From: Ginglymostoma cirratum
Taxonomy: Eukaryota
Assembly (NCBI GenBank): GCA_024137785.1
Contig: JAHRHZ010000248.1
Span: 29,568,093 to 29,632,092 of the forward strand
Length of the DNA stretch: 64,000 nt
Reading direction: 5' to 3'
Part shown: positions 4,493 to 48,232 of the stretch, piece by piece
Position numbering within the stretch: position 1 is the first letter of the stretch
How the letters are laid out: the number at the start of each line of letters is the position of its first letter
Notes under the pieces: generated by a model
Database searches by the model: none
The model's input: the letters and a program-made list of their open reading frames with translations, nothing else
What the model was told of the DNA's origin: nothing
Made by a program: the position numbers and the translations under genes

Positions 4493-4526
4493 CTTGACGT
4501 TTCGGGCCTAGACCCTTCATCAGAAA
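4493..4526 (-). ncRNA. Minimal type-I hammerhead ribozyme motif (family A, intact core)
   Basis: Reverse complement TTT-CTGATGA-A-GGGTCTAGGCCC-GAA-ACGT-C-AAG. Confidence 0.8.
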
Positions 4527-5281
4527 TGGGGGAGGGGAAGAGGGTTCTGAAATAAATAGGGAGAGGGGGGAGGCGGATAGAAGATGGATAGAGGAGAGGA
4601 TAGGTGGAGAGGAGACAGACAAGTCAAAGAGGCGGGGATGGAGGCAGTAAAGGTGAGTGTAGGTGGAGAGGTAGGGAGGAGATAGGTCAGTCCAGGGAGG
4701 ACAGACAGGTCAAGGGGCGGGATGAGGTTAGTCGGTAGGAGATGGGGGTGCGGCTTGAGGTGAGAGGAGGGGATAGGTGAGAGGAAGAACAGGTTAGGGA
4801 GGCGGGGACGAGCTGGGCTGGTTTTGGGATGCGGTTGGGGGAGGGGCCTCCTGCGGTGCCACAATGATGCCACCCGAAGGCTGCAGGAACAGCAACTCAT
4901 ATTCAGCCTGGGAACCCTGCAGTCCAATGGTATCAATGTGGATTTCACAAGCTTCAAAATCTCCCCTCCCCCAACCGCATCCCAAAACCAGCTCAGCTCG
5001 TCCCCACCTCCCTAACCTGTTCTTCCTCTCACCTATCCCCTCCTCCCACCTCAAGCCGCACCCCCATCTCCTACCTACTAACCTCATCCCGCCCCTTGAC
5101 CTGTCCGTCCTCCCTGGACTGACCTATCTCCTCCCTACCTCTCCACCTACACTCACCTTTACTGGCTCCATCCCCGTCTCTTTGACTTGTCTGTCTCCTC
5201 TCCACCTAACATCTCCTCTATCCATCTTCTATCCGCCTCCCCCACTCCCTATTTATTTCAGAACCCTCTTCCCCTCCCCCA

Positions 5282-5315
5282 TTTCTGATGAAGGGTCTAG
5301 GCCCGAAACGTCAAG
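5282..5315 (+). ncRNA. Minimal type-I hammerhead ribozyme motif (family A, intact core)
   Basis: TTT-CTGATGA-A-GGGTCTAGGCCC-GAA-ACGT-C-AAG: conserved core, 4-bp stem II, palindromic stem III, GUC cleavage triplet. Confidence 0.8.
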
Positions 5316-6085
5316 CTTTCCTGCTCCTATGATGCTGCTCAGCCTGCTGTGTTCATCCAGCTCCACACCTTGTTATCTGAGGAGCATTGCTCTGGCTTAG
5401 GGAATAAAGCAACTAACATTAAATGATGTTCCAACAGTACTGACATTTTCGTCGTGCTATGATGATTTTGCAAATAAATGTTGTTATTATGGGGTTTGGC
5501 TTTCCAAAGTAATATTATAGAAGGAAAAATGTTACTGAATTAAAAAGGTAGGCAGTGACCAAGATAAATAATTCAATTAGGAATTAGAGTTACTGCAAAG
5601 GTTCAATAATTTAGATCTGATTCCAAAAACATGATTTTGGAGTCAGGAAAATGAGGTCAACTTATACATCAAGTCAACTATATGCCCTATGATTCATGGT
5701 ATATTTTGAAGTATATTCACTACCTTGCGTTTTTGAGGGCCACATTATCAGAGTGTTCCCAGTTGCAGGTATGAAAAACCATACAATATATGATACAGAA
5801 ATATACCATTCAGCCCAACTAGCTCATGTCAGTGTTTACATCGCACTTGAGCCCTTCCCATCTTTCCTCTACCGTCATCTCTGCAGAGACCAATAACCTT
5901 TTTGAAGTTTGTTAAATTTCCTGCTAAAAGTGAAATGGATGACTTGACAATGTTTCACGTTTTACACAAACTAAAAGCACCATTGGTTAAGTACTAACAT
6001 TGGCTGCTTGTTGTGTAAACTACAGAATCAAGCTCCATGTTCCTACTTTTAACACAACTAAAAAAAAAATCACAGGTATATCTTA

Positions 6086-6180
6086 GATAACAAGCATGGG
6101 GCTGGATGAACACAGCAGGTCAAGCAGCATCATAGGAACAGGAAAACTTGACGTTTCGGGCCTAAACCCTTCATCAGAAA
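6086..6180 (-). mobile_element. ~95-bp Penelope pLTR mini-insertion with intact hammerhead core (6147-6180)
   Basis: Reverse complement TTTCTGATGAAGGGTTTAGGCCCGAAACGTCAAG...TTGTTATC; TSD TCACAGGTATATCTTA at 6070-6085 and 6200-6215. Confidence 0.88.
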
Positions 6181-7031
6181 TCTTCACAGGTATATACCTT
6201 CACAGGTATATCTTAAACTATATTTTAAGTAGACTCAATATTGAGTAGACACTCAATATTTCTGGATCCGGTTCAAAGTGCTCTTAGCTTCCTAGGGTTT
6301 TACTCCTGGAGAGATTCCTCCCTTCAGCTGAAAGTTGGACTGTAAGAAATTGGAGCAGGAGTAGACCATTAAACCCATTGATTCAACTAGATCATTGATA
6401 ACCTTCTACCTCAACACCATTTTCACATGCTATCCGCATATTTTTTGATGTCTTTAATTTCTAAAAGCTAGAATATGGAAAAGATAGATGAAACTTCAAG
6501 TCCTGTTTAAATCTTCATTAATTTGTCTTTTCAATCTAAGCGTTAGCTTTCCTGCATAGTGAATCTGAGAGACATTTGGTCGTTATCTGCTCTCGCTCTC
6601 CTGGATTCTCCTGGAAGTAGAAACCCTCCCCATTCAAAGCGCATCTTCATGATAATGTGAATCACATTGGCTTTAATCCAGGTAGAAATATTACTTTGCA
6701 ATTATTACAATCATAGTGAAAATGGACTGCCAATAATAATCTTTCATCAATTGACATTAATACTTCAGACTTTCATGACCTCAGACTTTCATGAGCCAAA
6801 AATAGGCTTTTAAAAAGGACACGCTGACCTAAAATGGCTACTATGATCACCTGACAAGCCTAGGCAACCCACAGGAAATGCGCAAAGCCAACACTGGAAT
6901 TATCATTTTTAATCAACAGGCAGTGAAACGCAGTAAGGTGTCAAGAAAGTTGAACATCTTGTATTAATGATAATTGCATGATGACTTTGCATATTAAGAA
7001 ACGAAAGATTACCTAGAACAACAACAACAAT

Positions 7032-7166
7032 AAAAACCAAAAGAACTGCAGATGCTGTAAATCTGAAACAAAAATAAAGTTGCTGGAAAAGGTCAGCAGG
7101 TCTGGCAGCATCTGTGAAGGAAACAGAGTTAATGTTTGAGGTCCGGTGACCCTTCCTCAGAACTGA
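7032..7166 (-). mobile_element. Penelope-type pLTR mini-element (family B), degenerate hammerhead
   Basis: Reverse complement AGTTCTGAGGAAGGGTCACCGGACCTCAAACATTAACT...CAGCATCTGCAGTTCTTTTGGTTT; homologous to 8284-8425. Confidence 0.78.
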
Positions 7167-7340
7167 TTGCCTACAACTATCTGACTTAAAATTAAACAAC
7201 ACAGAATCCACAAAGGTACAATACATCAACATCAGCCTTTGAGAAAAAAAGAGAGCAAAAGTAACATGACGTGATAATAACAATAATACCTACAGCTCTT
7301 CTGTACCTCTCTCTTTTCCTCTCTCAATCTCTGAAACCAT

Positions 7341-7530
7341 GATGTGGAGGTGCCGGTGTTAGACTGGGCTGGACAAGGTCAAAAATTGCATGACACCAGG
7401 TTACAGTCCAACAGGTTTATGTGAAGACATATGCTTTCGGGGTCTTGCTCCTTCTTCGGGTGTCAGTCTGGAAGTTTGTGTCTTCAAATAAACCTGTTGG
7501 ACTATAGCGTGGTGTCGTGTGATTTTTAAT
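7341..7530. mobile_element. Hairpin-shaped pLTR-type mini-element (family D), degenerate hammerhead on minus strand
   Basis: Inverted arms ACACCAGGTTACAGTCCAACAGGTTTATGTGAAGACA / TGTCTTCAAATAAACCTGTTGGACTATAGCGTGGTGT; minus strand 7428-7462 CCGAAGA-A-GGAGCAAGACCCC-GAAAGCATA. Confidence 0.6.
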
Positions 7531-8108
7531 CTCTGAAACCAGCACTGATCTGAAAGCAACTTTGAAGAACCACTACTCACCATGAAAACAAGATTATCTG
7601 AAAGCTCCACTACTCAAGGAGACAAGGTAACAGCTAAACAGAGCACAGAGAAGCTGAATATGGACTCAGGTTTCATTCTTGCAGGATTCTTAAAAACTTT
7701 AAACTGCGACTGTTTTTGCCTTCCTTTCTGTGCCAGATACCCTTTATCTCATTCTTTTTGAGCTTATTACCTGTGTGCATATGTGTTTTATGTTGCATGT
7801 TCTTATTTTTCTCAGGTTTAGCGAGTTGTAAAACTCAATTAACCCTTGGAATTGGCTATTTTTCATTTTTGATCTGGTGAATTAAGTTTACTTGAAGAAT
7901 GGTCACTATGATCTAAAAACAATTGTTCTCACCAAGCACAATTTAAAGAGCCTCCTCACCTGTGTGTAATGCTATCCTTTAAAGCCCAGATCTCTTTTAT
8001 CTTGGAAGTAAATAGACAGTAATGATGTAACTGTCTACAACTTGACAGTCTTCACACTTTTTGGAGCCTACCAACCTAATGTGAGTATAGATGCTATTGT
8101 CTCCAAAT

Positions 8109-8616
8109 GGGGTGGCATGGTGGCTCAGTGATTAGCACTGCTGGCCCACATCTCCAGGGACCCAGGTTTGATTCCACCATTGGGCAACTGTCCGTGTGGT
8201 GTGTGCACATTCTCCCTGTGTCTGCATGAGTTTCCTTTGGGTCATCCGGTTTCCTCCCACAGTCCAAAGAAGAGCAGGTTAGGTTCTGAGGAAGGGTCAC
8301 CACACCTGAAACGTTAACTCTGATTTTTTTCTTCACAGATGCTGCCAGACCTGCTGAGCTTTTCCAGCAACTTCTGTTTTCGTTCCTGATTTACAGCATC
8401 CGCAGTTCTTTCAGTTTTCATTTATGCAGGTTAGGTGGACTGGCCAGACTAAATTGCCCATAGTATCCAGGCATGTGCAGGCTAAGTGGATTAGCCATGG
8501 AAAATGCATGATTACAGGGATTGGGTCAGGAGGTGGGGTGCTATTTGAAGGGTCAGTGTGAACTCGATGGGCTGAATAACCTGCTTCTGCTTTGTAGGGA
8601 TTCTGTGATGATTCTA
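8109..8616 (+). mobile_element. HE1/V-SINE interrupted by a pLTR mini-element
   Basis: A/B boxes at 8110-8176, central domain, tail GGGATTCTGTGATGATTCTA; homologous to 2607-2933. Confidence 0.85.
8284..8425 (+). mobile_element. Family B pLTR mini-element with hammerhead core, nested in SINE
   Basis: GTT-CTGAGGA-A-GGGTCACCACACCT-GAA-ACGT-T-AAC at 8283-8318; TSD GCAGGTTAGGT at 8274-8284 and 8426-8436. Confidence 0.85.
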
Positions 8617-11165: not shown

Positions 11166-12290
11166 CTCCATCCAAGCAGCCTTTGTCAGGTAAGATGGCT
11201 CTTGTTGCCGTCCCTGAGGATTAGAATGTCCCCATATTCACCCACATCCTGCAGGAGCAACTCTATGGGTCAGTCGCTAAATTTTAAGACTTCTCTGTCA
11301 TCTTCTGGATTAGCTGGGGGCAGGCTGCAAGGTCTGCCAATGGTGCTGCAGCTTCAAAGAGTGAAATGTTTGCTGTACAGGTACCTTTCAAATATGGCTC
11401 CTGAACGTTGGAGCCAGGAAGCTACTCATTGGGAGTTGGGGGTGTAAGCAAAACTTTCTGCCCAACCACCAGTAAAATTTGACTTTTAACCTGTGAGATT
11501 TTTAAAGAACATAATTGCTAAGAAAACACAACTCACCCCCAAGCAGAGCAACCTCTTGCTTTTCCAATGAAGCACAGGTTCAAAAGAGAATATTGCACCC
11601 ATTGCCTCTGTATCTACTTTGTCAGAACCCTTCATAACCTTAAAGACCTATAGTAGGTCAGCCTTATTTTTTCAAGGGAAATGAGATTCACCCTGTCAAT
11701 CCTTCTCTGATTTGTTAATGCACAAATTTGTGCAATCATCCTCATACATCTCCTATACTGTTGCTGTGAGATGAATGTTCCTCACCCCTGATTAATGGTT
11801 CAGTTAAAGAATGAGGTCAAGGAATATTAAACAATTGGCTACGTTATTAACAATATTAATACTTTAGGCTATACTCATTTTTAGCACAGACTGGTACATC
11901 ACATGGCAAGAGATTGAAGGAAATTTTCCAAATCAAATATAATTTAATGATTTTAAAAAATGAAGTTGAACTTAGGCTGTTTACTCTCTTCAGTTTGACT
12001 TATACTGTCAGTTATTTGGTTCTTAACACAGGATTAAGTTCAACAAGGCTGTTCTCCTGGTGAGGAATGTCATTCAAGCAGAGCATGATCACTAAACACT
12101 TTGGGTGGATTCTGAGATCTGTGAGGTTCCACACCAGGGAATGGAGTCCAACTCAATATACTGTCCAGTCAGTTCCTGTTGAAATGAAATTTTATTGATA
12201 CATTAATTAGAAAAAACAAAACTTTCACAAACTCTGGTCAATTAACAAGTCCATTGGGTTATAAATTTAATAGCTATCAACAACATTTTA

Positions 12291-12426
12291 AAAAGCGAAG
12301 GAACTGCGAATGCTGTAAATCAGGAACAAAAACAGAAGTTGCTGGAAAAGTTCAGCAGGTCTGACAGCATCTGTGGATAAAAATCAGAGTTAATGTTTTG
12401 GGTCCAGTGATCCTTCCTCAGAACTT
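12291..12426 (-). mobile_element. Family B pLTR mini-element, degenerate hammerhead
   Basis: Reverse complement AGTTCTGAGGAAGGATCACTGGACCCAAAACATTAACT. Confidence 0.78.
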
Positions 12427-12579
12427 ATGCCGTTTACTCTCTTCAGTTTGACTCATACTGGCATAGGATTAAGTTCCCAATGCTGTTCTCCTGGTGAGGA
12501 ATATCATTCAAGAACATCGTGATCACAGATACCTCACTGAACACTTTGGGTGGATTCTGAGATCTGTGAGGTTCCAATC

Positions 12580-15911: not shown

Positions 15912-16262
15912 GTTTCAAAATCTCCCCACCCCGGCCTCATCCTATGACCAACCCTCCCTCTCATCCCCGCCTCCTTGGCATGATATAACCTGTCCATTTT
16001 CTCTCCCACCTATCCACTCCTCCCACTTCACTGACCAATCCCCACTACTCCCTACCTATCACCATCCCACCTACCTTCCCCAGCCCCAGCCCTCCTCTCT
16101 CTATTTATTTCTGAGTTCCCTTCCCCTCCCCCATTTCTGAAGATGGGTCCCGAACTGAAGCGTCAACTTTCCTGCTCCTCTGATGCAGCCTGGCCTGCTG
16201 TGTTCCTCCAGCTCCACACTGTGCTATGTCTGACTACAGCACTGGCAGTTCTTACCTCTCTG
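15912..16262 (+). mobile_element. Penelope pLTR fragment (family C) inside an older minus-strand CR1 remnant (~15540-16640)
   Basis: C-rich pLTR body, then TTTCTGAAGATGGGTCCCGAACTGAAGCGTCAAC (degenerate hammerhead) and CCAGCTCCACACTGTG tail. Confidence 0.75.
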
Positions 16263-18649
16263 AGCACTTCCTCACATTTGGATTCCAACTCTCTTGAAAT
16301 AAAAACCAACATCCCATTAACTTACTGATCATGCTTCGTACCTGAATGCAAGTTTTCAGTAATTTAAGTTCATAAAAAAGCTAAATCTGTTTGTTTCTGC
16401 ACATATCCTGTCCCTCACTATTAAGAAAAGGTTTTGGTTTGTCATCATCAGATCCAGAATGGATGTTGTTAACTTGCTTGGACATCAGTCCTACCCCATC
16501 CAACACATAAGGGTGCAAGTGGCACCTGAAGAATGTTTGATCGTAAAATTGAAGTGTGAATCTAGGAATCCACATATCAATCTCATTAAATTTCCCCAGA
16601 AAAGCCCATGAGTATGGTATGGGGATCTAAGTCTGGAGTAAAATCAATACACATAGCAATACAAAGCAAAATGACAATTCCAGTCTAACTATGCAATTGG
16701 CACTGTAGGCTTCACACTAGTCAATTTAGTTGCAGTGATCCACTTTCAGACTGCCATAGTACGCGTGTTACTGATATTAATGAAGTGAGCTTGTGTAGTA
16801 TGCAAAGTGTATAGGGACAAATGATAGTATGTTTTGTGGAACCTAACTTACAAATGTGACTATAAAAGATTTCACTACATGGAAAACAAGAATAGTGTCA
16901 AGTGACTGACTAAAGATTACAATATTTTAATTCTGAGAATAACACTCACAGAACAAGATTGTGAACTGAAAGTTTATTAATTCATAAGGTAAATATTCAA
17001 CAATTTCCTAATGCTGACACCCAACAATGGTATTCAAGCACTGCTGAGAGAGGGGAACCTCACCTGTTCAAGTGCATTTGAAAAATCATGAGTCCGATCA
17101 GGTAGCGGCAAATGACATTGCCAGATTTATGCTCTCACTCATGTTGTAATGAAGGTTCATAACGTAGTATTATTATTAATTGAGAACTTGAGTTCTAAAA
17201 TGGAGCAAATGTATTTTAGTTTTTCACTTCTGACACTTTTTAAAAGTCGTTTTGGTCATTGAATTTAAGACAGCATTTACAGGAAGTCATGTGACTACGA
17301 CTAAATGAACAGTAAGCCACTTGGGAAGATAATTGTTTGTTAACTTTGAGTTTTACAACACCCCAGGGAGAGAGAGAGACAGACTGACCAAAGGAGCTAC
17401 AAATAGGCTCATGCTAGGTAGGAAGAAGCCTGGAAGAACAAGTGTGCTCTTATTAGCAGTCTCCAAGCAGTCAGGGCTAAGGAGGAGTCCTGAAGTGCAT
17501 AGAAATCAGTGAGAAGAGAGCTTCAGAAGCAAAAGACTTTTGGGGTATCATAGAGTAAGACATCCCAAGTTTATGGAATCTATATTAAGTATTAGCGGAA
17601 TCTAGCAGTTTGTTTTGTAGTTTTGAGGGAGATACATTAACTAAACAAATCAGTATTGAGTAACCATGCAGAAATTTACTGAAGGAAGCTGATTACAGCT
17701 GTGCCAACAGAGCAAGAAACTCTGGCATTGTGATGGGGGAATTTTAGTGTCTATAAGTGTATTACTCGGAAAAAGTGGTGAATCTTTCTTTCTGATTTTT
17801 GTAATGTATATAATGTAATTTTGCCAATTGTTTTCTTTTGTGCTATAATGTTTTAAATTTTCTTTTGCTAAATGTATGTTAGCAGCTCTAAGGTTTTGGA
17901 GTAGATTTGTAGCTCGGGTTGTTGGTATTGTGGTTGGTTGGCTCGTTGAGCTGGTTTGTTTATTTACAGCATATATCAAAAAAAATGCAACTTTGCCTTA
18001 ATTAAACCAGCTCGACGAGCCAACCAACCACAGTTTATTAGCAGCCTTGTGTGAATATGCTCAGTGACTGATCTCCATGATAAACAATAAGAAATAAATC
18101 AAGCCAGATTTTACTCTGAGATCTGACTTGACCAGTACTACCATTAGTTGTGAACATAACAAAGTGGGAGCTCTTTGCAAGATCAAAATTACTTAAATTT
18201 AAGAACATGAATCTTGAAAACTGAGTTATGTTGAGATATTGGGCATAACAACAAGAGATTTGTGAAGTGTATTACAAAGGTTGGAATTTTAACATGGCTT
18301 TGACTATTGCTGAGACTTTTCTGGGAGTAGAAGAAATAACAGGGAATATTTTAAAATCTTTGACTAAGACAAAACTTAGAGAGCTGGTAGCTAAATTGGA
18401 GGTAGGAATAAAAGCAAAACCTCATAGAGATGAGATTCTTCAGGTATTACCCATCATATAGAAGTAAAAGGAGGAAAATTTGGAATTGATGTGTCATTGC
18501 TAGAGAAAGAGTTGAAGGAAAAACAAGAGACATGAAAAGAGAGAAGAAAGAAGTACACAGAGAACTGGAAAGAGAAGAGAAAGAAAACAAAAGCTGAAAA
18601 CAAAAAAGCTTGAAGAAAAGAAGGAAATAGAATTTTAAAATCTTAAATA

Positions 18650-20267
18650 TGACTCAGCTAAAAACATTTAAAGAAAAAAAGAAAAAGCAGGCATATGTAA
18701 GGTTTACAAAACTGAAACCAGAGAAAGCCTTCAGGAATACAAAGGAAGCAGGAAAAAAGTTTAACAAGGAACTTGGGGGGCTAAAACATGCCATAAAATG
18801 TCCTTGGCAAGTAAGATTAATGTGAATCCCGAGGCAATTTATACAAAATTAGGAGCAACAGGGTAGCTAGGGAAAGGGTAGGTCCACTCAAGGACAAAGG
18901 ATGGAATTTATGCTGGAACCAGAGAAAATGTGTGTGGTCCTTAATGAGTATTTTGCATTGGCATTCACCAAGGAGAAGGACATGGATGACTAGGGAGCAG
19001 TATGTTGATATTCTAGGGCATGTTACCATTAAGAAGGAGGAAGTGTTGGGTGTCTTCGAAAACATTAAGGTAGACAAGTCCTCAGGCCTGATGGGATCTA
19101 ACCCAGGATACTAAGGGAGGCAAGGAAGGAGATTGCTGAGGCCTTGACAGAGATCATTGTGCGCTCTTTAGCCATAGGTGAGGTTTCAAAAGCCTGGAGA
19201 ATAGCCAATTTCTTCTTTTGTTTAAAAAGGACAATTGGGATAACTCAGGAAATTATAGACTGGTGAGCCTTACATCATTAGTAGGGAAATTATTAGAGAA
19301 GATTCTTGGGGACATGATTTACTCACATTTGGAAAAGAATGGACTTATTAGGGATAGTCAATATAGCTTAGTGCAGGAGAGGTCTTGTATCACAAGTTTG
19401 TTTTTTGAGGAAGTAAGGAAAATGATTGAGAATGGGGCAGTCAATATTGTCTACATGGACTTTCCTAAAGCATTTGACAAGGTCCCTCGTGGTATGCTGG
19501 TCCAGAAGATTAAGAAAAGATCCATGAGGGTCTAGGCCCAAAACGTCAAGCTTTCCTGCTCCTATGATGCTGCTTGGCCTGCTGTGTTCATCCAGCTCCA
19601 CACCTTGTTATCTAAGAAAAGATCCATGGTGAGTTGATAAGTTGAATACAAAATTGGCTTGCCCATAGAAGACAGAGCGTAGTTGTGGAGCTGCAATTTT
19701 TTGACCGGAGGTCTGTGACCAGTGATATTCCACAAGGATCAGTGCTGGGACCTCTGTTGTTTGTAATATATAAAAATGATTTGAATGAAATGTAGATGAT
19801 CTGATTAGTAAGTTTGCAGGTGACATAAAAATTAGTGGAGTTGTGGATAGTGAGGAAGGTTATCGAAGGACACAGAAGGATCTAGCTCAGCTGGAAAGTT
19901 GCATGGCAAAATGGTAGATGCAGGTTAATCTGTACAAGTGTGAGGTGATGCATTTTTGGAAATCAAATGCAATAGGAAAGTATACAGTAAATGGTAGGAC
20001 CCTGAGGAGCATTGATATACAGAGGGATCTTGTAGTGCAACTCCATAGTGCTCTGAAAGTGGCAGCACAATTAGAAAAAGTGTTAAAGAAGGCATATAGT
20101 ATGCTTGTCCTCATTGAATATAAAAGTTTGCAAGTCATCTTGTAGCTTTATAAGATTTTAGTTAGGCCACATTCGGAGTATTGTATTCAGTTCTGGTCAC
20201 CACACTATAGGAAGGATGTGGAATCTTTGGAAAGGGTGCAAAAGAGATTTACCAGGATGATAACAAG
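18650..20267 (+). mobile_element. Degraded CR1 LINE RT fragment
   Basis: NYRLVSLTSLVGKLLE, VYMDFPKAFDKVP, KCEVMHF and LERVQKRFTRM motifs across frameshifted ORFs. Confidence 0.9.
19527..19612 (+). mobile_element. 86-bp family A pLTR mini-insertion inside CR1
   Basis: AGGGTCTAGGCCCAAAACGTCAAG...CCTTGTTATC; TSD TAAGAAAAGATCCATG at 19511-19526 and 19613-19628. Confidence 0.9.
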
Positions 20268-20309
20268 CATGGGGCTGGATGAACACATCTCCTCTAAACA
20301 TTCTGCGTC

Positions 20310-26198: not shown

Positions 26199-26459
26199 TT
26201 AATGAAATGATGAAACATTTCCAGCACTGCTGTTAGTAGGTGGTTGAGACGACACTGATTGTTCAAACTGACTGTCTCCAGTACTCTTTACTCAGAACAC
26301 TTGTCTTAGGTGACAAAGACTATGGCCCAGATTTTAATGCCTCCAAATTTTTCAGAATGCAGTTGGGTGGGATTTAAAACCGATGGATGAAATCCTATTC
26401 AGGAATCACCGTATCCATTCCTGAAGCCTCCAAAAAGTAGTGGCACAAATAGATTACCC

Positions 26460-28033
26460 GCATCGGCCCAAGCTATGCCTGCCTCTTTGTAGGTTATGTG
26501 GAGCAATCCCTCTTCCGTACCTACACTGGCCCTAAACCTCACCTCTTCCTCCGTTACATTGATGACTGCATCGGCGCCGCCTCATGCTCCCACGAGGAGC
26601 TCGAACAGTTCATCCACTTCACCAACACCTTCCCCCCCAACCTGAAGTTCACCTGGACCATCTCCAACACTTCTCTCTCCTTCCTGGACCTCTCTGTCTC
26701 CATCTCGGGTAACCACCTAGAAACCGACGTCCATTTCAAGCCCACTGACTCCCACAGCTACCTGGAATACACCTCCTCCCACCCACCTTCCTGCAAAAAT
26801 GCCATCCCCTATTCCCAATTCCTTCGCCTCCACCGCATCTGCTCCCAGGATGAGACATTCCACTCCCTTACATCTCAGATGTCCTCATTCTTCAAGGACC
26901 GCAACTTCCCCCCCACAGTGGTTGAGAACGCCCTCGACCGTGTCTCCCGCATTTCCCGTAACTCAGCCCTCACACCCCGTCCCCGCAATAATAACCAAAA
27001 TAACCCCCTCATCCTCACGTACCACCCCACCAACCTCCGGATCCAACGCATCATCCTCCGACACTTCCGCCATCTGCAGTCAGACCCCACCACCAAAGAC
27101 ATCTTTCCCTCCCCACCCTTATCTGCCTTCCGGAGGGACCACTCCCTCCGCGACTCCCTTGTCCGCTCCACAGTCCCCTCCAGCCCCACCACACCCGGCA
27201 CTTTTCCCTGCAACCGCAGGAAGTGCTACACCTGCCCCACACCTCCTCCCTCACCCCAATCCCAGACACCAAGAAGACTTTCCACATCAAGCAGATGTTC
27301 ACCTGCACATCTGCCAATGTGGTATACTGCATCCGTTGTACCTGTTGTGGCTTCCTCTGCATCGGGGAAACCAAGCGGAGGCTTGGGGACCGCTTTGCAG
27401 AACACCTGCACTCAGTTCGCAACAAACAACTGCACCTCCCAGTCGCAAACCATTTCAACTCCCCCTCCCATTCCTCAGACGACATGTCCATCCTGGGCCT
27501 CCTGCAATGCCACAGTGATGCCACCCGAAGGCTACAGGAACAGCAAATCATATTCAGCCTGGGAACCCTGCAGCCCAATGGTATCAATGTGGATTTCACA
27601 AGCTTCAAAATCTCCCCTCCCACAACCGCATCCCAAAACCAGCCCAGCTCATCTCCACCTCCCTAACCTATTTTTCCTCTCACCTATCCCCTCCTCCCAC
27701 CTCAAGCCACACCCCCATCTCCTATCTACTAACATCATCCCACCCCTTTGACCTGTCCGTCCTCCCTGGACTGACCTATCTCCTCCCTACGCCCCCCACC
27801 TACACTCACCTTTACTGGCTCCATCCCCGCCTCTTCGACTTGTCTGCCTCCTCTCCACCTATCCTCTCCTCTATCCATCTTCTATCCGCCTCCCCCTCTC
27901 TCCCTATTTATTTCAGAACCCTCTTCCCCTCTCCCATTTCTGGTGAAGGGTCTAGGCCCGAAACATCAAGCTTTCCTGCTCCTATGATGCTGCTTGGCCT
28001 GCTGTGTTCATCCAGCCCCACAACTTGTTATCT
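26460..28033 (+). mobile_element. 5'-truncated Penelope-like element: RT C-half, GIY-YIG, pLTR with mutated hammerhead
   Basis: GPSYACLFVGY, RYIDD, VVYCIRC..CIGETKRRLGDRFAEH, PVANHFN; one frameshift near 27240; hammerhead 27937-27970 reads CTGGTGA..GAAACATC. Confidence 0.95.
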
Positions 28034-28364
28034 CTCATTTCTAACCCAGTCACCTCCGTAGGCATCTCCTATAGTCATGTCATTTTCATGGAGTCATTTC
28101 AGCTTCTCCTCTCTCCTGGGTCTTGGCCATTTACATGAGTTGTGAACTATGATCTGTATTCATGGGCCTTTTGAAAGATAAAGTCAAGTAGCTTTGTTGA
28201 TGTTCCTTATGATTTTCCCATGTCAATGTAGGTCGCCCACCCATCCCTAATAGCCTCTCAGATCTTTAATGACATCTCATGCTCCCCATTTTCAGCTCTT
28301 CAAATAGCTCCATGTATCGTCCATGTGAACCCATGGCATTTTCCTGTCAATTCCCCTACTATAT

Positions 28365-31739: not shown

Positions 31740-32775
31740 TAATGCAGAGCTGGTCCGGCAGCATGTGGGGAGAGAAACCAGAGTTACTATTCCGAGTCCA
31801 GTGAACATTCTTCAGAACTGAATGCAGCTAGGAAAAGGGTGATATAAATGCTGATGTTTGAGTGTTGTGGAGAGGGCTAGCAGGCGTGTGGAGATGGAGA
31901 TCAGAGAGAGAAGAAAAGAGATTGTTAATATTAAACACAGAGAAGAAGAAAAGCTCAAAAGATGACATTGGAAACTATGAGTAGTTGAAAATGGGTGGAC
32001 TGTGCAGAAAGCAACTCAATTTTTGACAATATCTGGGACTGTGAGAGTAGGTAATAGACATGGAAGGAGATAATCATGCTCTGAAATTGTTAAGCTCCAT
32101 GTAGAGTCCTGAAGGCTGTAAGCTATCTAAAAGGAAGATGAGGTGTTGTTCTTTCAGATTGTGTTAAGTTTCACTGGAACATTACAGCTGACCTGAGACA
32201 ATTGTTGGCATGGAAGCATGATGTATTGGAGTGGCAGGCAGTAGGAAGCTCAGGGGCACATTTACCCACAGAACATCTGTGATCTGCAAATTGGTCACCC
32301 AATCTGCATTTCACCTCCCAATTGTAGAGAGATCACATTGTGAGCAGCAAATACAGTAGACCATATTGGCTGAAGTGCAGGTAAATCATTCCTTCTTCTG
32401 GAAGCTGTGTCTGGGGCCTTGGATGGTGAGGAAGGAGGAGGAGGCTTCTAGGTGGAGCAGTGTTTTAGAGACTTCAGGATTCAACATTGAATTTAACAAA
32501 AAAATGGAAAGAGCTATGGATTCTGGAAATCGGAAGCAAAAACAAAAATTGCTGAAAAATCTCAGCAGGTCTGGCAGCATCTGTGGAGAGAAATCAGAGT
32601 TAATGTTTCGTGTCCAGTCGCCCTTCTTCAGAACAATGTTTCAAATCCAGCGACCCTTCTTCAGAACAAGATTAAGCTCTGAAGAAAGGTCACTGGACCT
32701 GAAACATTAACTTTGATTTCTTTCCACAGATGCTGCCAAACTTGCTGAGATTTTCCAGAAATTTCTGTTTTTGAT
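31740..32775. mobile_element. Degenerate Penelope GIY-YIG fragment (minus) plus several family B pLTR pieces, the last two inverted
   Basis: 32060-32440 parallels 14-360; pLTR pieces at ~31745-31820(-), 32520-32667(-) and 32677-32775(+), the last with CTGAAGA-A-AGGTCACTGGACCT-GAAACATTAACT. Confidence 0.75.
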
Positions 32776-35243
32776 TGAGTTTAACAACTTCAGAGCATGA
32801 ACACCTCCTTTCAAGCCTATTACCTACCCCACTGCCACAGGTCCTGTCATGAAATTGGTAGCTTTTAGCACAGCCAACCCATTTCCAAATACTCACAGAT
32901 CTTCCTTTACAGGCGTGAAGCCAATAGATAGTATTGTCTCCAGTTTACAGAACAATGATCAAGTAGCACAAATACCATAAGCTGTCCAAACTATTACAGA
33001 CAAGCAAATGCTGCACATGCCCCATCTCCTCCATGCCTGAATTGGTACAATTGGGTTTCTAGGCCACAGCCTTTATGTTAGTTTTACTTTACATGTACTG
33101 GTTGTCTAGAAGGTTATTACACATTTTTGAAATTGTTGTTATGACATTTGGGGAACATTTCTGTCTCCTCTGTTATTGCTGTTGTCAAGTTTTACATAGA
33201 AACAGCACCACAAAATAAAGAGATAAAGACAGATTGATTATTTGTCTAGAAATAATGCATTTGTGCTAATGCTGAATTAGCGACCATAATGCATAGGCTA
33301 GCATTGTGGTCCACTAATGCAGAAAAGGAAAATCTTGGGCTGAAAACACAGTTCACGGAGATTGTGTGTACTCAACTAGAGGGAGGTGAGAGTTTTTTCT
33401 TATTCTTTACTGGCATATCTCTTATTGCTCTTCAACTGATTAGCTTACTAAGCCATTATTCGGATGGCAATTTGAAATCAACCATTGCGTGTCAGAAGTT
33501 ACATTAGGATAGGAGTTTCTTCCCCAAATGTGGGCTTTTCTTTTTAAAAAATGATGCATGGTCACCATCACTGAGAACAACTCTCCATTCCAGCTTCATT
33601 CATGGCACTTCAACTCCACCAGCTGCAATGGTGGGAGTTGAACCCATGACTCCAAAAACATTTCACTGTCCCAGTGGAGTACTAGTCTGACAACGTCATC
33701 ACAAAACACCATCTCCCCTTTATAATCACGCATCCTATTATACATTGAGAGTCTTCATTAGAAAAAATGTTTTACATGTTATTTTTGATTGCTATCTTCA
33801 GGTATGCTATATGAATGGAATGTTTTCCATTAGGGTGAAAGATCATTGTCGACAAAGATCAAAATTTGCTATAATATCTATTCTTTACCTTGAATGGTGA
33901 ACCTGATGCGACTAACATTAAACTATGATCCCCAGTCTTACAAATAGTTTCAACAGAAATGAAATGTGATTAGCAGTCCTGCCTGAAACATTAGCTGGAG
34001 CTGGGGAGGTTTTTCTAGATGTTTGCAGCATGACTGGATTGTTGTCCTTTGCTGAGGGATATGCAGCTGTCTGCCACTTTCTTACTGGTTCCATTATCCA
34101 CGTGGTGGACCTCGAAGAGCTCAGCAGAGCTGGGAATTGACAGTTCCTCCAATTGATGCTGATTGCTGAAGGCACAGCTGCCAGTGGTTGGGGTAAAGAA
34201 ATAGGAGAAGGGCAAGAGGTCTGAGTTGCAGAAAAGGCATAGTTCTCAGAGAATTGGGGGACGATAAGGAAGTACTGAGGCCACGGAGGAATTTGAATCA
34301 AGAGGTGCGGATTTAAAATTGAGACATTGCTGGACTGGGAGACAATGTAGATCAGTGAACATGGGATGATATGTCAATGAGAGTTACTTAATGAGAGGAT
34401 ACAGGCAGCAGAATTTTGGATGAACTTGAGTTACTGGAACGTGGAAAATTGGTTAACAGTAAGCCAGCCATTGGAATAGTCATGTCTGGAGGTACAAAGA
34501 TCGTGGATGAGAGACTGGACAACAGATGGCCTGGGCCAGAGATGGGCAATCACGTTTCGAATTTATCTTTTGCTCCACACCATTAACTAGTTTTATGAAA
34601 ATGTACACTCCCGCTCATTTCTTGTTTTCCTTAGTGTATTAGCACAAGAGCTTATACTTGGCTTAAATTACATCTGCCACCTGCTTGCCCAGTTCCCTAA
34701 GCGTTACTTCTTGACGTTTTGTTTTACAGGCCTTCTTCGCTATTTGCTTAACTGTTATTTACTTGTCCCCTCCCAAACCGAACTATCTATTTCTTCCACA
34801 TGCAACAGTTCTAATTTTTTTCATACAGCCAATATAATTCAAGTGACAACATATACTTCCCTACTTTTTTTTCGAACTGAAACGCACTCGGGCATTTGCT
34901 AAGCATTCATTAATGAAACCTTGAGCTTGTCGGGTAAGGAGAGGGAGACTATTCCAGTCACATTTACCCTGCAGCCGGGGAATGGAGGGAGGCAGCGCCG
35001 GTGCAGTATGTATGTCGACTGTGGGGGTTTCACAGAGCAACGCGACGTATCACCAACGCAACCACCTACCATTTCTGCATTGCAGAATTTTGACTCCGTC
35101 CATTTTTATTTCACATATAAAGCAGCACAATACATTGTCAATATAACCGACTTACTTTTCTCTTCATTTTTTATCTCCCTCTCTTGTTAAGATAAGCGAA
35201 CAGATATGGGCCTGCTTTCCATTTACTGTTGAAGCGGTGCACT

Positions 35244-41805: not shown

Positions 41806-42363
41806 GAAGGAGATCAGTCGCTATGTCGACATTTATAAAAATTTCACCTTGCTTAAGAAAAACGTGCGAGTAGGACAGTTGCTGCACTACGATTACTCTA
41901 ACCACAAATACGTTTTCTCAGTCAGCAATAGTTTTCGATCATTGCTCCCCGACGTGACCCCTATATTAAAGATGCATTACAACACATGTGCGGTGGTTGG
42001 GAACAGTGGGATTCTAATCGGGAGTCATTGCGGAGCTGATATCGACAAAACAGATTTCGTGTTCCGCTGCAATTTCGCCCCAACTGAATCTTTTGAGAGA
42101 GATGTTGGCAAAAAGACGAATCTCACGACATTCAACCCAAGCATCCTCGAAAAGTACTACAACAATCTCTTAACAATCCAGGATCGAAACAAGTTTTTCC
42201 TGAATCTTAAAAAGCTGGATGGAGCCATTCTTTGGATTCCTGCCTTTTTCTTCCACACTTCCGCTCCGGTGACAAGAACGTTAGTAGATTTTTTTATAGA
42301 ATATAGAGCACAATTGAAGGTCCAATTGGCTTGGCCTGGGAACATAATGCAGCATGTCAATAA
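41806..42363 (+). CDS. ST8SIA3: ST8SIA3 coding exon 3 (558 nt; sialylmotif L)
   Basis: Acceptor TTTTAG|G; contains CAVVGNSGILIGSHCGADIDKTDFVFRCNFAP (sialylmotif L); donor AA|GTGAGT. Confidence 0.97.
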
Positions 42364-42489
42364 GTGAGTATCTATGACCCAAAGACATTTTTACCTGAAA
42401 TTTCTTTTTAAAAAAAATTCACAAGAAGGTTCATTCTATAATTCCATCCCCAGTTGCCTTTTTTATGATCAAAATAAGTGAATGTTGTG

Positions 42490-42835: not shown

Positions 42836-43020
42836 GTTTAACTTGTCCCCTTTCTTCGTTGAGTCACCCACTGCGTTGCTGCTCTTTGGTTCAGTCTCTG
42901 TGCTTCCTTGGATCATATTGATTGTTTTTCTCTTTATTCTCAAGATTTCGAACTTCAGCTATACCCTCCCCTCCCCCACAAGCATCACAGATAGATCAAA
43001 AGGCCTAAGCAAAATGGCCA

Positions 43021-43642
43021 GAGATAAAAGGTACTGCAGATGCTGGAGAATCCGAGATAACAAGCATGGGGCTGGATGAACACAGCAGGTCAAGCAGCAT
43101 CATAGGAGCAGGAAAACTTGACGTTTCGGGCCTAAACCCTTNNNNNNNNNNNNNNNNNNNNNNNNNNNNNNNNNNNNNNNNNNNNNNNNNNNNNNNNNNN
43201 NNNNNNNNNNNNNNNNNNNNNNNNNNNNNNNNNNNNNNNNNNNNNNNNNNNNNNNNNNNNNNNNNNNNNNNNNNNNNNNNNNNNNNNNNNNNNNNNNNNN
43301 NNNNNNNNNNNNNNNNNNNNNNNNNNNNNNNNNNNNNNNNNNNNNNNNNNNNNNNNNNNNNNNNNNNNNNNNNNNNNNNNNNNNNNNNNNNNNNNNNNNN
43401 NNNNNNNNNNNNNNNNNNNNNNNNNNNNNNNNNNNNNNNNNNNNNNNNNNNNNNNNNNNNNNNNNNNNNNNNNNNNNNNNNNNNNNNNNNNNNNNNNNNN
43501 NNNNNNNNNNNNNNNNNNNNNNNNNNNNNNNNNNNNNNNNNGCCTAAACCCTTCATCAGAAAGGGTTTAGGCCCGAAACGTCAAGTTTTCCTGCTCCTAT
43601 GATGCTGCTTGACCTGCTGTGTTCATCCAGCCCCATGCTTAT
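43021..43642. mobile_element. Family A pLTR hairpin insertion spanning the assembly gap, 15-bp TSD
   Basis: Left arm 43061-43141 is the reverse complement of right arm 43561-43640; TSD TAAGCAAAATGGCCA at 43006-43020 and 43643-43657. Confidence 0.88.
43142..43541. other. Assembly gap (400 N)
   Basis: Run of N. Confidence 1.
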
Positions 43643-43664
43643 TAAGCAAAATGGCCATCTCTCT

Positions 43665-43848
43665 TTGTAAGAACTGCCGACGTTGGAGTCAGAGATAACA
43701 CAGTGTGGAGCTGGAGGAACACAGCTGGCCAGACAGCATCAGAGGACATCTGAAGAAGGGTCCCGACCCGAAACGCCAACTTGCCTGCTCCTCTGATGCT
43801 GCCTGGCTTGCTGAGTTCTTCCAGCTCCACACTGTGTTACCTCTGACA
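43665..43848. mobile_element. Family C pLTR hairpin mini-element
   Basis: GTCAGAGATAACACAGTGTGGAGCTGGA..AGCATCAGAGGA inverted against TCCTCTGATGCT..TCCAGCTCCACACTGTGTTACCTCTGAC; the loop holds CTGAAGA-A-GGGTCCCGACCC-GAAACGCC-AAC (43750-43780). Confidence 0.82.
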
Positions 43849-44955
43849 ATCACTCCTTGCCCACTGCACCGTTTGCACCGTTAAGTGAAATTTATAACGT
43901 AGTAAATAATAAACAAAAATCTAAAAGTAGTCACAAGTGTTCGCATAAAAATGCATTTAACCTGCTCAAATTGATCCCACATTTTCCAATGCAGGTACAC
44001 CGTCACACCACTTCATTGATTAGCACAATCTATACAGAATGGTTCTGAGCATGACTCCTGGGTCATGCTCATTCCTTTTCTTGTTCAGCCTCGTTCCCTA
44101 GTCTTTGTCTTGGACTATTCTCTTCAACCTCTTGCTGTGTCCAAATACCCCGGCATCTTATGAAGTCATGCTATATTACTCCAGTGGACTGGCAGACCAT
44201 CCTGCAATTCAAGCTCTGATACGCGGGCAAATCCGCTTTGCCTCCCGGCCATAAACCAAGGTACTGCCCCACCCCACAGTCGAGCTAAGTTGCCCATCTT
44301 CTCACACTTTCTGTTCTGAATATCAGATTCATTAAACTGTTGAGAAATTTATCTCAGAATAGTGAGGTAGTCAAATCATTAACTGGTTTTATACATTCGT
44401 TTGTAATCAGTTAATTTTACTTTTTTTGCAAGAATATATATTTACCTAAGACCTCCTACTCCCTTCTCTTTAATCATGTGATCCCAGTCCCAATCCCGGG
44501 CTCAGACCTTGGTTTCCACTCCTTCACCATATCTTCATCTGCCTTATGCACTTCAAGGCGGTACACACCCGCAGAATTTTGTCAAAGATTTGGAACTCTG
44601 ACTTACGACAAGAAATGGTCTGATTGGCAGATGTTAAGGGGAAAAAAAAGACAGAATGAGAGAAAGCCAGACAGAAAGGAATACCGAGAATGTAAGAATG
44701 CAGAAGATGGGAGACAGGGCGGGAAAACTTAGATAAAGGGAGAAGAGTGGAAAAAATGTCACGGAGATGCAAGAATAGTAAATGCCAGATAGGCATACAG
44801 CAATAGAGAAGGGCTAACATTGAATGTCCGAGAAATAAAAATAGAACAGGAGGAAGACGGTAAAGTTTACAAAAAAAAGTGAAGCATTTTTTCATGAAAA
44901 TGAAATCCACGGATGATTGATATTTTGTCATTTTTGTTACTCTATTGTTAAACAG

Positions 44956-45241
44956 ATATTGGAAAACCAAACATCTATCCCCAAAGCGTCTAAGTACAGG
45001 CATCTTGATGTATACACTAGCGTCGGCCATCTGCGAAGAGATCCACTTGTACGGATTTTGGCCTTTCGCATGGGATCCTAACACTGGAAAGGAATTGCCA
45101 TATCATTACTACGACAAAAAGGGGACAAAATTCACAACCAAATGGCAAGAGTCCCATCAACTACCAGCAGAATTCAAGCTGTTGTTCAAGCTACATAATG
45201 ACGGCTTGACTAAACTGACTCTCTCACGTTGTGCCTCTTGA
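44956..45241 (+). CDS. ST8SIA3: ST8SIA3 coding exon 4 (286 nt incl. stop; sialylmotifs S, III, VS)
   Basis: Acceptor AAACAG|A; YWKTKHLSPKRLSTGILMYTLASAICEEIHLYGFWPF (motif S), HYYD (motif III), HQLPAEF (motif VS), TGA at 45239-45241. Four exons total 1146 nt = 381 aa + stop. Confidence 0.97.
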
Positions 45242-48124
45242 TAGGATGCTTTTGAAGTGCCAAGTTATTCCTTGTTCTCATTCTTTGTTCCGTTTTTGAT
45301 TCCAAATGCATTTTGTACCCAATGCGTTGAGATCTCTGTAGGCGACGCTTCGTGATACATTTCTCAGAGTAATTCCAACAGCTGTGGCACTGACGTGTTC
45401 ATGAGTTTTCGTGTACTGTGGTAGTAAAGCATTTATTTTATATTGGGAAGTAGCCGCAAGCATTTGCAGTAGAATTTGGGGATGGGAGTGGTTCCCGTTA
45501 AATGGGAGATTGAATATATTGAACCATTGGAACCTGATTATAGAAGTCAGTTTAGCAGTTACCAGTGGCGACAGAACGTGGGCTGGCGATATTGGGCCCT
45601 GCCAATATAGCGACGGGCAGTGTAGGTCTCAGAATTCTCTAAGCCTGGTATTTTGAAAATGGCACCCAATCAAATTAGACATGGATAATAAATGCTGGCC
45701 TTGCTACGGATGCCCACGTCCCACCCTTAAATAATTCTATGTTGCTGCCACTCAGATCGTTTCACAAGATGCATTGAGGAAAAGTATTAAAGTCAGGAAA
45801 ATGTGTCCCAATGATTTCGATCGAGCACCTTTGATATCTGACCTATTAACCTATTTCAATGGTGCCAACATCATAAAACCACAGTCTGCATGGTCGGTGC
45901 GCTCAGCACGGGAGTTGCTACAGTGAATTTGCGCGAGATTGTTTTTTGTTGTTGAAGTTTTAGGTCAATTTGTTAACATTTTAACATTAAACAGCGAGTG
46001 AGCTCCAAGTATCCTGTCTAATTTAAAAGACCGAGTTGCCCGTAGAATAAAGTGCAAACCTGCAATAATTTAGATCATCAATGAAAACGGTCCAAGCAGT
46101 AGAGGCTCGACAAAACACTTCTAATAGTGTTGGGAGAGTTTAGCCGAAAGACACGGTCTAGTAAAAAGTACATGAATTGTTTATTTAAGCATATCCTCAA
46201 ATGGAATGCATTTGGTATCTTTCAAGTCCTGTTTATATAGAATATCTTGTACGGTTGTCAAAGTGAACATGCGAGTCTTTTGCATGTACGTGGCACAAGC
46301 ATTTTTTAACCATCAAATTGGACGGTAACTGTACTACTTTTGTATTGATACTTAAAAATAGACTTGTTTTATTTCTTTTACAGCTTGAGGAGAAAACTAA
46401 GTTTCGAAGTTATATTGAGTACGTTTTCTTTTGCCTGTTTAGTTGATCCAGGTCCCTGCTGCCGTGTAAGAGCTAGGGTTTTAATGAGAGACGGCCCTTG
46501 ACTCTTCACTCTTGTATTGCGAAATTGAAGAAGTTTATTGATTCTTGTCTGTAAATTTTTTTTCTCATGCCTGCTACTGTTCATCTACACTAAATTACTA
46601 ATGTGAGAATTTTGTTTCAGTGGCGTGAGCAGTTGTTGGTAACTATATAAAGACATTTGGAACAAAGCTGCGCATACTCATTAATGGGAACATCGCCTCG
46701 AAAACATTACAAAAACTTACTTGTTTACCAAAAGCAAAACTGTTATGTTTACAATCTCACTAACAATTCTATTTTGCTTAAAAGTTCCGATCATGCCATG
46801 TCAGTTTTCATGGCTTCGGGCTAACGCAGTCCCGTGAAGATAAACAGGTTAACATATTTGATTTAGACAGCAAAGTCACGGCATACTGATCGTCACGAAC
46901 CCACAAGGAGCTTATTCCGAAATAAAAATAACGTTCTTTAAGCTTATAAAGCATCATTCGTCACTCGAATGGAGCTGACCGAATCTGAGGGATGTTGTTG
47001 CAAAATTAGAGCCACTATTCACATCTTGGCTAAACGGAGACATTGTATCCATGTCGAAATGAAGGAGAGGAAACTCTGACTAGATAAATTTGTGTATACC
47101 CACAGACATTCCAAGGGAACGTTTTCATACATATTAGGAATTAGGACGTTTGGGGGTTAATTATTATCAAATAATTAAGATGCATGCAGTTAACGTTAAC
47201 ATAACTTTAGGCCATAAATTAATTGTACGAATCACGCTCCCTCTGCGCAGAAATCTAAATATATACACAACATCGAAGAAATTATTCAATTATGCAATTC
47301 CATTTCCCATATACGCACCCGATTTGTATTTGACCGCCTCTCCAAAGCTGGTTAATGTAGTTTTGGAAAATTAGACTCCTGGATATTATTTTATGTTTTT
47401 CGCACCACATTTCCACTTGCTGCTATTCTTACTGCGGAAGTCGACAGCAGAATGCTGACTATTGCTTTCCCTCAGTTTAATCTTTAGTTTACTGAGTCAA
47501 CCGCGGTTGTTTGATCAATTTTTAGAATCCATGTCTTTAAAAAAGAAGGTTTCCGCCAACAGCCACCCGCACCGGCTTTCAGAATGTGCGACCCTTCACA
47601 ATGCCCGAGCCGAGAGCAGCGTCTCCTTTTCTGTACTATTACAAATATTTGATCAACTCCTCAAAAATTCGTTCTTACAGTACGGAGAATAAGTCCCGTG
47701 GTACAATCTATGCAAAATAAACCGTATTAAATGACAATAGCAATGAAATGGAACTATTTATCAAGACTATAATATTTCCTCTACGCCATACATTTGCGTT
47801 AATTATGCTTAGAGTCACATATCAAATTTAAAGAGAATTTTGTAAGTGCTATTTGTACATTTGACCGGACTCAACAAGTCTACATTCTACGCTATTGTTT
47901 ATATCATTCTCATTACGATAGCCGAATCATTACTTTCCATGAAAATCCTTCTCGCACTATATGGGCTGACATTTTAGGAAATATCTCCCCAAAAAACTCA
48001 TCCATAAAGCCATTAAAAGTGTATTTTACTGAATGGTATCTGACACGTTTTAATAAAAAGTGTACAGAAGGCACGAACACGGACTCCCCGTTATTACCAC
48101 ACAACTACAGGCCAGCAAGGGTTT

Positions 48125-48232
48125 GTAATCAGAAATAAAACAGAAATTGCTGGAAAAGCTCAGCAGGTCTGGCAGTATCTGTGGAGAGAACGAGAGTTAA
48201 CGTTTCCGGGCGAGTGACCCTTCCTCGGAACA
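48125..48232 (-). mobile_element. Family B pLTR mini-element
   Basis: Reverse complement GTTCCGAGGAAGGGTCACTCGCCCGGAAACGTTAACT. Confidence 0.78.

Follow-up and report, generated by a model that had tools for sequence, protein, structure and literature searches.

Hammerhead ribozymes in the pseudo-long terminal repeats (pLTRs) of Penelope-like elements (PLEs) have been in print since 2014; single copies scattered through a genome, as well as tails and inverted arms, are also already described. PLE minimal hammerheads are treated by Lunse et al. 2017, as cited in PMC6765202. Published motif counts are ~4,000 in coelacanth and ~9,000 in Xenopus tropicalis (PMC4209133); the parts of that paper covered name no shark. 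Retrozymes of the non-LTR (non-long terminal repeat) kind have been reported in one cartilaginous fish (bioRxiv 10.64898/2026.07.22.740005; PMC7229834). In the pLTR of the rotifer element Pen2a, a putative TATA box and initiator were described (PMC3846280), in an account that predates the hammerhead and does not tie these motifs to insertion ends. The function of the PLE hammerhead and the regeneration of the pLTR are stated open questions (PMC8557442, PMC2377424). In a search that was thin on subscription papers, we found none that reports hammerheads in shark PLEs, or that connects the boundary of the hammerhead with a TATA start. Here we analyze a 64,000-nucleotide stretch of the shark Ginglymostoma cirratum (assembly GCA_024137785.1, contig JAHRHZ010000248.1, positions 29,568,093 to 29,632,092, forward strand), referred to as the window, together with pLTR copies elsewhere in the genome. 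The window contains 20 pLTR copies from three PLE families, A (with a subfamily A'), B, and C. The new detail is that many copies start just before the hammerhead core, behind a TATA-like box. In our reading, which we consider probable, the window motifs are the mostly decayed end repeats of three Neptune-type PLE families, likely copied from uncut RNA predicted to start 4–8 bases before the core.

Where pLTR copies begin

pLTR copies were sampled from 120 arbitrary 10-kb stretches, of which 38 all-N ones were left out, leaving 796,544 usable bases; the sample is not uniform, as the later 40 stretches come from six contigs only. It holds 199 copies (A 129, B 64, C 6), or one per 4.0 kb. Start positions were counted relative to C3, the first core base, in the CUGANGA box. 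Starts pile up just before the core, at −10 to −1 in 85 of the 199 copies (48/129 in A and 34/64 in B), while the interval from −40 to −11 holds 3/129 and 3/64, respectively (binomial P ~1e-22 for A and ~1e-21 for B). This pile-up is a more informative feature than the motifs themselves, and the original prediction, a sequence-only list of about a dozen hammerhead motifs in the window, overlooked it. Starts within 2 nt of the predicted cut are rare, 1/129 in A and 0/64 in B, with 3.9 and 1.4 expected from the downstream truncation rate, suggesting that the reverse-transcribed RNA was likely uncut and started at helix I. Starts downstream within the motif account for 56 of the 129 A copies. A minor cluster of starts also falls within the CUGANGA box, between +3 and +6 (L235, L239, L243, L252, and the density sample).

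Copies linked to the open reading frame (ORF) were fetched by their 5′ leader. Among the 29 scorable of 30 such loci, 12 begin at −5 to −1, 13 begin further downstream, and 4, including the query, extend past the promoter region. In A and B the match to the upstream template drops to background at −5/−6, and base counts place the boundary at −3 to −5. In family C the drop comes at about −8 and the boundary at about −7 or −8, beyond the 4-bp helix I. Among contigs assembled from the run of a different organism, 27 have unrelated flanks that end at window position 5282, which corresponds to −3.

The last 60 nt of long copies were scanned for the best TATAWAWR-like 8-mer, using commonly cited TATA and initiator consensus motifs. 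Families A and B have a TATA-like box at −35/−34, and family C has one at −37 to −40. The box moves with the start boundary and is followed, ~31 nt on, by the A in CCATTTC, TCAGTT, or CTCACT. As an out-of-sample set, we took 80 metagenome loci of distant relatives, of which 14 have a scorable hammerhead and represent 10 independent families. The best TATA-like box falls at −40 to −34 in six of these ten non-shark families (1.8 expected, P=0.0014), and in one of them a perfect TATATAAG at −36 is followed by TCAGTC. In four distant relatives (L359, L360, L361, and L367), helix III has a 6-nt palindrome (ACCGGT, AAGCTT), and the TATA box, at −34 to −36, is strong.

Target duplications flank 17 of 55 stubs compared with 7 of 274 controls, indicating that stubs are real insertions. 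Arms of head-to-head pairs make up 30 of 85 stubs, and the 199 sampled copies include 29 head-to-head pairs versus 4 close same-strand pairs. The 3′ ends fall at two sites ~35 nt apart (90–96 and 126–129 in A, 94–99 and 130–134 in B). Partial tandems, inverted 5′ arms, and an optional 30–40-bp tail are all present. A first look at the 5′-ORF region gave 1,940 candidates against several hundred thousand repeats. Stubs often lie inside or beside other pLTR stubs or short interspersed elements (SINEs), as in L018, L116, L129, and window 8110–8500. A 400-N gap (window 43142–43565) sits in the center of a head-to-head pair, and many loci have a gap of this kind next to the palindrome, which suggests assembly trouble there.

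The hammerhead motif and the elements that carry it

The core, CUGANGA / GAAA / UH in type-I order, is present in the window and genome-wide. In a set of 204 distinct generic matches in shark DNA, a bulged A precedes stem II in 198, and stem II has at least 3 bp in 93% versus 10% when shuffled, a statistic that is partly circular since many of the loci were picked by stem-containing patterns. Helix III is a loopless palindrome, ACGT in 167 matches and AGCT in 36, with one non-palindromic; ACGT belongs to families A and B and AGCT to C. Helix I is family-specific, with 3–4 bp across the predicted cut, and reaches at least 3 bp in 64–78% of random within-family pairings versus 0–17% of cross-family ones. 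All 13 core letters recur, with different stems, in the three shark families and the 14 metagenome loci. The original prediction of minimal type-I hammerheads in PLE pLTRs, in several distinct families whose helices co-vary, is supported: there are three families, each linked to a reverse transcriptase (RT)/GIY-YIG frame, and the co-variation extends to helices I, II, and III. The predicted self-cleaving motif of the window copies, mostly decayed, is of the kind known from PLEs. An Rfam scan of the window and four loci returned no hammerhead family match; a mir-607 match was rejected, as it is a head-to-head pLTR pair.

After insertion, non-CpG core positions change at rates close to the median flank column (1.3% vs 2.3% in A, 5.3% vs 4.8% in B, 5.0% vs 4.5% in A′), and core CpG positions decay fastest (7–18% in A and 32–46% in B). 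Family A has a mean flank rate of 7.0%, above its core rate of 1.3% (P=2e-7), since changes diagnostic of subfamilies tend to lie outside the core; mean flank and core rates do not differ significantly in B or A′. Inserted copies decay neutrally and their core is unprotected, which places selection in the copying lineages rather than on the stubs. Solo copies have no tandem partner for dimer cleavage, and they are likely inert.

Locus L148 is a natural partial tandem, pLTR-ORF-pLTR, whose two hammerheads point the same way and are separated by 3,646 nt. Its order is a 5′-truncated repeat, 5′ leader, ORF, and second repeat. The ORF encodes an N-terminal domain, RT, a CNRRKCYTC linker, and a GIY-YIG endonuclease, with a frameshift and stops. 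Open frames of 739–821 codons occur in 7 of 20 long loci, and the longest alignments among these loci are 94–97% identical to L148, so family A is young. An imperfect 33-bp tandem repeat at L148 6340–6560 encodes an Ala/Thr/Pro-rich linker from the N-terminal domain to the RT, and most long family A copies begin near it. RT-endonuclease frames lie upstream in 3 of 30 family B loci, with ~40–60% identity to A, and a Neptune-type linker and endonuclease lie upstream in 4 of 20 family C loci. The linker reads CNRRKCYTC in A and CHGNRCKTC in C. The hallmark of Neptune and Nematis is a CX2-5CxxC linker that joins RT to endonuclease (PMC8557442). By this linker, read in A and C and shared by Nematis, we type families A, B, and C as Neptune-type PLEs. 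Homologues of the element protein carry PF00078, and some PF01541, consistent with a single ORF with PLE RT and C-terminal GIY-YIG. The nearest named relatives of this protein are in carpet sharks, at 93%, 89%, and 79% identity. A Pfam scan of the truncated PLE frames in the window gave no match.

Two further features of the pLTR were considered and rejected. A short ORF common to pLTRs fails, as the frames differ between A and B, and so does a common intron, as a branch-point/acceptor-like stretch over the cut site occurs only in B, not in A or C. In family B (e.g., 8312–8343) a branch-point-like TTAAC overlaps the predicted cut site, with a pyrimidine tract and CAG-ATG after it. Assembled run contigs, which do not resolve splicing, showed no consistent splice joint.

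The genome is 4.36 Gb, with a readable part estimated at ~2.6 Gb. A generic pattern, the core without stem constraints, matches 153,030 intact cores genome-wide, equally on both strands, compared with 3,391 for the reversed-pattern control. Exact family patterns match 53,061 times for A, 6,120 for B, and 310 for C, each with 0 control matches. The generic pattern is intact in 47 of the 199 sampled copies, which gives an estimate of ~648,000 copies in the readable genome.

A possible copying route and its rivals

We think it quite likely that transcription of a capped RNA begins at helix I, driven by a promoter in the repeat, and that this RNA, uncut, is the main template, giving both solo stubs and promoterless full-length copies. 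A TATA-initiator promoter in the pLTR would start RNA 4–8 bases before the hammerhead core, and the element RT would prime internally, ~95 or 130 nt into that RNA, as in vitro for the anole element. When priming takes place in the 5′ repeat, the RT would run off the RNA 5′ end after 100–135 nt and leave a solo stub, often as a head-to-head pair. Priming in the 3′ repeat would yield the usual 5′-truncated or full-length copy, which, with no upstream TATA box, would be silent. Loss of an external TATA box on copying would explain the need for partial tandems. Any action of the hammerhead might be confined to the full-length transcript. There, helped by protein, the two copies would pair by way of their 4-bp palindromes. 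Dimer cleavage would then free a unit-length RNA, which would be circularized, and copying past the circle junction would restore the promoter and produce partial tandems. A model of dimer cleavage and circularization was proposed in PMC4209133; that it supplies the promoter-restoring tandems, themselves a minority, is possible and, to us, somewhat doubtful.

Several observations weigh against this route. Only 4 of the 29 ORF-linked copies, one of them the query, keep the promoter. The family A box has 2 mismatches to the consensus, and 4 of the 10 non-shark families have no box at −40 to −34; three of these have a perfect box at −78, −80, or −114, and one has none. An extra G copied from a cap is weak in stubs and absent in B, and the base before ATTT in 42 stubs is C in 23, G in 11, A in 5, and T in 3. 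Raw genome-wide counts of apparent junctions are 137 at the cut site versus 52 and 80 at control sites 4 and 8 nt downstream. Among 100 listed cut-site junctions inspected by eye, 33 look like small (1–4-nt) indels, 8 are joins to the CTGA start of the other arm, and T runs account for 10. Junctions therefore do not clearly peak at the cut, but there may be up to a roughly twofold excess. Folding of family A RNA puts the hammerhead target at −2.6 kcal/mol and the minimum at −11.7 kcal/mol, and the predicted dimer minima are not hammerheads; the hammerhead fold is thus predicted to be disfavored for RNA without help. Such weak predicted folding is in line with the low or protein-dependent activity published (PMC11167929, PMC4209133), and 1 of 9 Xenopus dimers was cleaved (bioRxiv 10.64898/2026.07.22.740005). 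The source of promoter-bearing tandems is equally compatible with a circle, read-through, or strand transfer, and Naiad PLEs proliferate without hammerheads (PMC8557442).

The start peak could instead reflect an RT stop or a preferred joining point, caused by a folded or protein-bound hammerhead or by ATTT microhomology with AT-rich targets, rather than an RNA 5′ end; stubs would then be ordinary 5′-truncated copies of the 3′ repeat. The boundary in A and B does coincide with the 5′ strand of helix I, the anole enzyme favors ATT targets (PMC11167929), and the many A copies that begin within the motif make heavy truncation real. However, the more AT-rich patch at −35 draws no starts beyond the three A copies counted from −40 to −11, and the B and C boundaries are not AT-rich. 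The family C boundary lies 3–4 nt beyond helix I and follows its TATA box, and helix I should already be unwound by the RT from its 3′ strand, so we regard a stop or joining point as unlikely. Alternatively, the start site is right and solo stubs arise by recombination after insertion between two ~130-bp repeats, like solo LTRs. The 12 full-length copies with the same start would leave just such a stub with its target duplication. The short head-to-head arms among the stubs, and the many others that begin inside the motif, point to short cDNAs instead; the 5′-ORF candidates are few against the repeats, and 130 bp is, in general, a short tract for recombination. We consider this origin of the stubs improbable.

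A stronger alternative leaves the hammerhead outside copying, limiting expression or riding along, with tandems made from read-through RNA or by retrovirus-like strand transfer through the repeated 130 nt. To limit expression, it could cut the cap off 30 nt into the RNA, or cut the 3′ repeat from its RT start site. Core mutants of the anole element insert normally in vitro and no anole RNA reads ended at the cut (PMC11167929), cut-site starts are rare in the shark copies, and hammerhead-less Naiads thrive (PMC8557442). Pure hitch-hiking is harder to reconcile with a core that stays unchanged between families even though their RT-endonuclease pieces share only ~40–60% identity, which argues for selection for catalysis in copying lineages and fits a regulatory role. 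We give this alternative as a whole a little less than an even chance; a limiting or regulatory role and the circle step are about equally likely. A host function of dispersed intact copies, cutting pre-mRNA in cis or in trans via the palindrome, is very unlikely: there are ~150,000 intact cores, some of them intronic, and trans-dimers are formally possible through 4 bp, but the core decays like its flanks with CpG sites going fast, strand counts are equal, and the copies in the intron of an ST8SIA3-like gene are broken. That the motif is a chance look-alike within the repeat and not a ribozyme is hardly credible. The missing Rfam match and the weak predicted folding speak for it, against which stand the core letters, the bulged A, and the paired helices recurring in shark and metagenome families with different stems.

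Returning to copying from uncut RNA started at helix I, a broader version can be put forward tentatively, as rather unlikely in full. In many Neptune-type PLEs the hammerhead would come first in a TATA-driven capped RNA, 5′-repeat priming would make strong-stop-like cDNAs of 100–135 nt that became several hundred thousand shark insertions, and the rare promoter-restoring tandems would come from cut, circularized unit RNA. If true, the ribozyme would be a switch between dead-end and self-renewing copies, explaining pLTR regeneration.

The window and its comparison with known systems

The pLTR copies in the window were found by BLAST with natural reference copies (Table 1). A pLTR copy is present at each of the roughly dozen positions first predicted, and the loci were right; the numbers given there mark helix-I ends, not C3. 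The full pattern is complete in only 4 of the 20 copies (C3 at 4523 and 6177 on the minus strand and at 5285 and 8286 on the plus strand). The other 16 are broken relics, truncated or with a core lesion that mostly reflects CpG decay. A strict descriptor (core, stem II, palindrome, and H) gives 4 matches in the window compared with a mean of 0.2 (maximum 3) in 30 second-order Markov sequences. Copies at 19527(+), 20259–20287(−), 31815(−), 7472–7533(+), and 43667–43746(−) were absent from the original list, as were short duplicate motifs at 32664(−) and 43559(−). The predicted density of about one copy per 4 kb holds outside the window, in the sample above, and the genome-wide search with the generic core pattern found intact cores in large excess over control. 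The claim that no copy is visible from the ORF track did not hold: the copy at 27940 sits after an RT-endonuclease frame (26453–27751), and those at 4523 and 5285 sit after endonuclease tails.

Table 1. Positions of PLE-derived features in the window
Feature	Position	Strand	Details
Family A head-to-head insertion, two 5′-truncated endonuclease-3′ untranslated region (UTR)-pLTR arms	4378..5390	both	Arms 4393–4846 minus, with ~35-nt tail; 4844–5378 plus, without tail
Target-site duplications of this insertion, 13–14 bp	4378–4390 and 5377–5389		
Intact family A minimal hammerhead	4493..4526	−	C3 4523; predicted cut after 4496
TATA-like box TATTTATT, putative core promoter	5250..5257	+	35 nt before C3, 31 nt before initiator-like A at 5281; same site scored in L148
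Initiator-like CCATTTC	5279..5285	+	Putative transcription start ~5281–5282; family A copy starts
Intact family A minimal hammerhead	5282..5315	+	C3 5285; predicted cut after 5312; stem II GGGT/GCCC; palindrome ACGT
Solo family A stub	6085..6181	−	Begins 4 nt before intact core (C3 6177); tailless; target duplicated on its flanks
Solo family B stub with tail	7028..7167	−	C3 7160; core broken, CAAACATT (G12 lost, palindrome decayed)
Family C head-to-head pair	7343..7533	7343–7462 minus, 7472–7533 plus	C3 7459 minus; core broken, CCGA
Solo family B stub	8283..8422	+	Intact core (C3 8286); inserted in SINE with 11-bp duplication; one mismatch atop stem II
Solo family B stub	12289..12429	−	C3 12421; core broken, AAAACATT
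Subfamily A′ pLTR and upstream promoter region	16077..16264	+	C3 16137; core broken, GAAGCGTC (A15.1)
Family A stub cut off inside motif	19527..19613	+	CUGANGA box missing; target duplicated
5′-truncated family A element	26453..28034	+	RT C-terminal half, CX4CxxC linker, frameshifted GIY-YIG endonuclease, 3′UTR, pLTR; hammerhead C3 27940 with two core lesions, CTGGTGA/ACAT
Old family B stub	31748..31836	−	Core heavily decayed
Family B head-to-head pair	32500..32776	both	C3 32631 minus and 32679 plus, both ACAT; palindromes decayed; duplicate 32664 minus
Family A head-to-head pair across 400-N gap (43142–43541)	43019..43640	both	In last intron of ST8SIA3-like gene; cores incomplete in sequenced part; CUGANGA box missing at 43141/43561 (N gap)
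Subfamily A′ head-to-head pair	43667..43847	both	Plus arm begins at core (C3 43750); ACGC, U16.1 lost
Solo family B stub	48137..48231	−	C3 48228; CCGA, U4 lost

Other PLE pieces are present. A Neptune-type RT-endonuclease fragment at 5–1957(−) is 5′- and 3′-incomplete, with ~70% protein identity to family A. An isolated PLE N-terminal domain fragment (12598–13224, plus strand, 34% to family A) lies 170 nt from the opposite-strand family B stub and is flanked by a duplicated stretch at ~11950–12170 and ~12410–12580. A decayed GIY-YIG fragment at 32149–32442(−) is found downstream of the family B pair. The gene we take to be ST8SIA3-like, a sialyltransferase (Pfam PF00777), is on the plus strand with exons near 35196–35426, 41092–41319, 41771–42367, and 44921–45241. 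Its last intron contains four pLTR copies, whose cores are all incomplete as far as they are sequenced, and its intron 1 a ~900-bp direct duplication of ~90% identity (38660–40300). An ONECUT-like CUT-domain gene follows at 57509–58810(+). The window also has a near full-length CR1-like long interspersed element (LINE) at 22727–25760(+), with endonuclease and 783-codon RT frames, as well as LINE fragments and SINEs.

The closest known system is the PLE minimal hammerhead of PMC4209133, which shares with the shark motif its type-I order and full core, a single bulged base ahead of stem II, and G10.1-C11.1, as well as the palindromic 15.2-16.2 without loop III and a short helix I. It also has several families per genome, mostly single dispersed copies, and a tandem pair ~3.6 kb apart in full elements. 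The parts of that paper covered do not say where the motif lies with respect to a TATA-initiator start, and the numbers differ, 153,030 cores here versus ~4,000 and ~9,000, counted with different descriptors. The Poseidon element PAc of Anolis carolinensis (PMC11167929) likewise has two 3′ ends ~35 nt apart (the tail), which match internal RT start sites, and uses uncut RNA as template with no ends at the cut site. PAc, however, belongs to the Penelope/Poseidon clade and not to elements with a Neptune-type linker; its start codon lies in stem II, whereas the first in-frame ATG of L148 is ~35 nt past the tail; and it is known by biochemistry, the shark elements from genomic insertion ends. Drosophila virilis Penelope (PMC2377424) and Adineta vaga Pen2a (PMC3846280) are alike in having a start inside the pLTR, a need for partial tandems, head-to-head arms, and solo pLTRs. 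In Penelope, by contrast, the internal promoter lacks a TATA box and an intron precedes the hammerhead (PMC2377424). The shark elements have their box ahead of the putative start, where copying would lose it.

Animal non-LTR retrozymes (PMC7229834; bioRxiv 10.64898/2026.07.22.740005) are similarly short non-coding PLE-derived units with type-I hammerheads. Retrozymes, however, form head-to-tail tandem arrays, and close direct pairs number 4 among the 199 copies sampled in the shark; the shark stubs also lack the putative promoter. The ribozyme class is not new, and most shark copies are probably inert debris; the count of hammerhead cores is far above the published counts found. The shark genome offers ~0.65 million insertion ends as an in vivo record in which most copied RNA was uncut, with its start probably at helix I and an external TATA box upstream of it.

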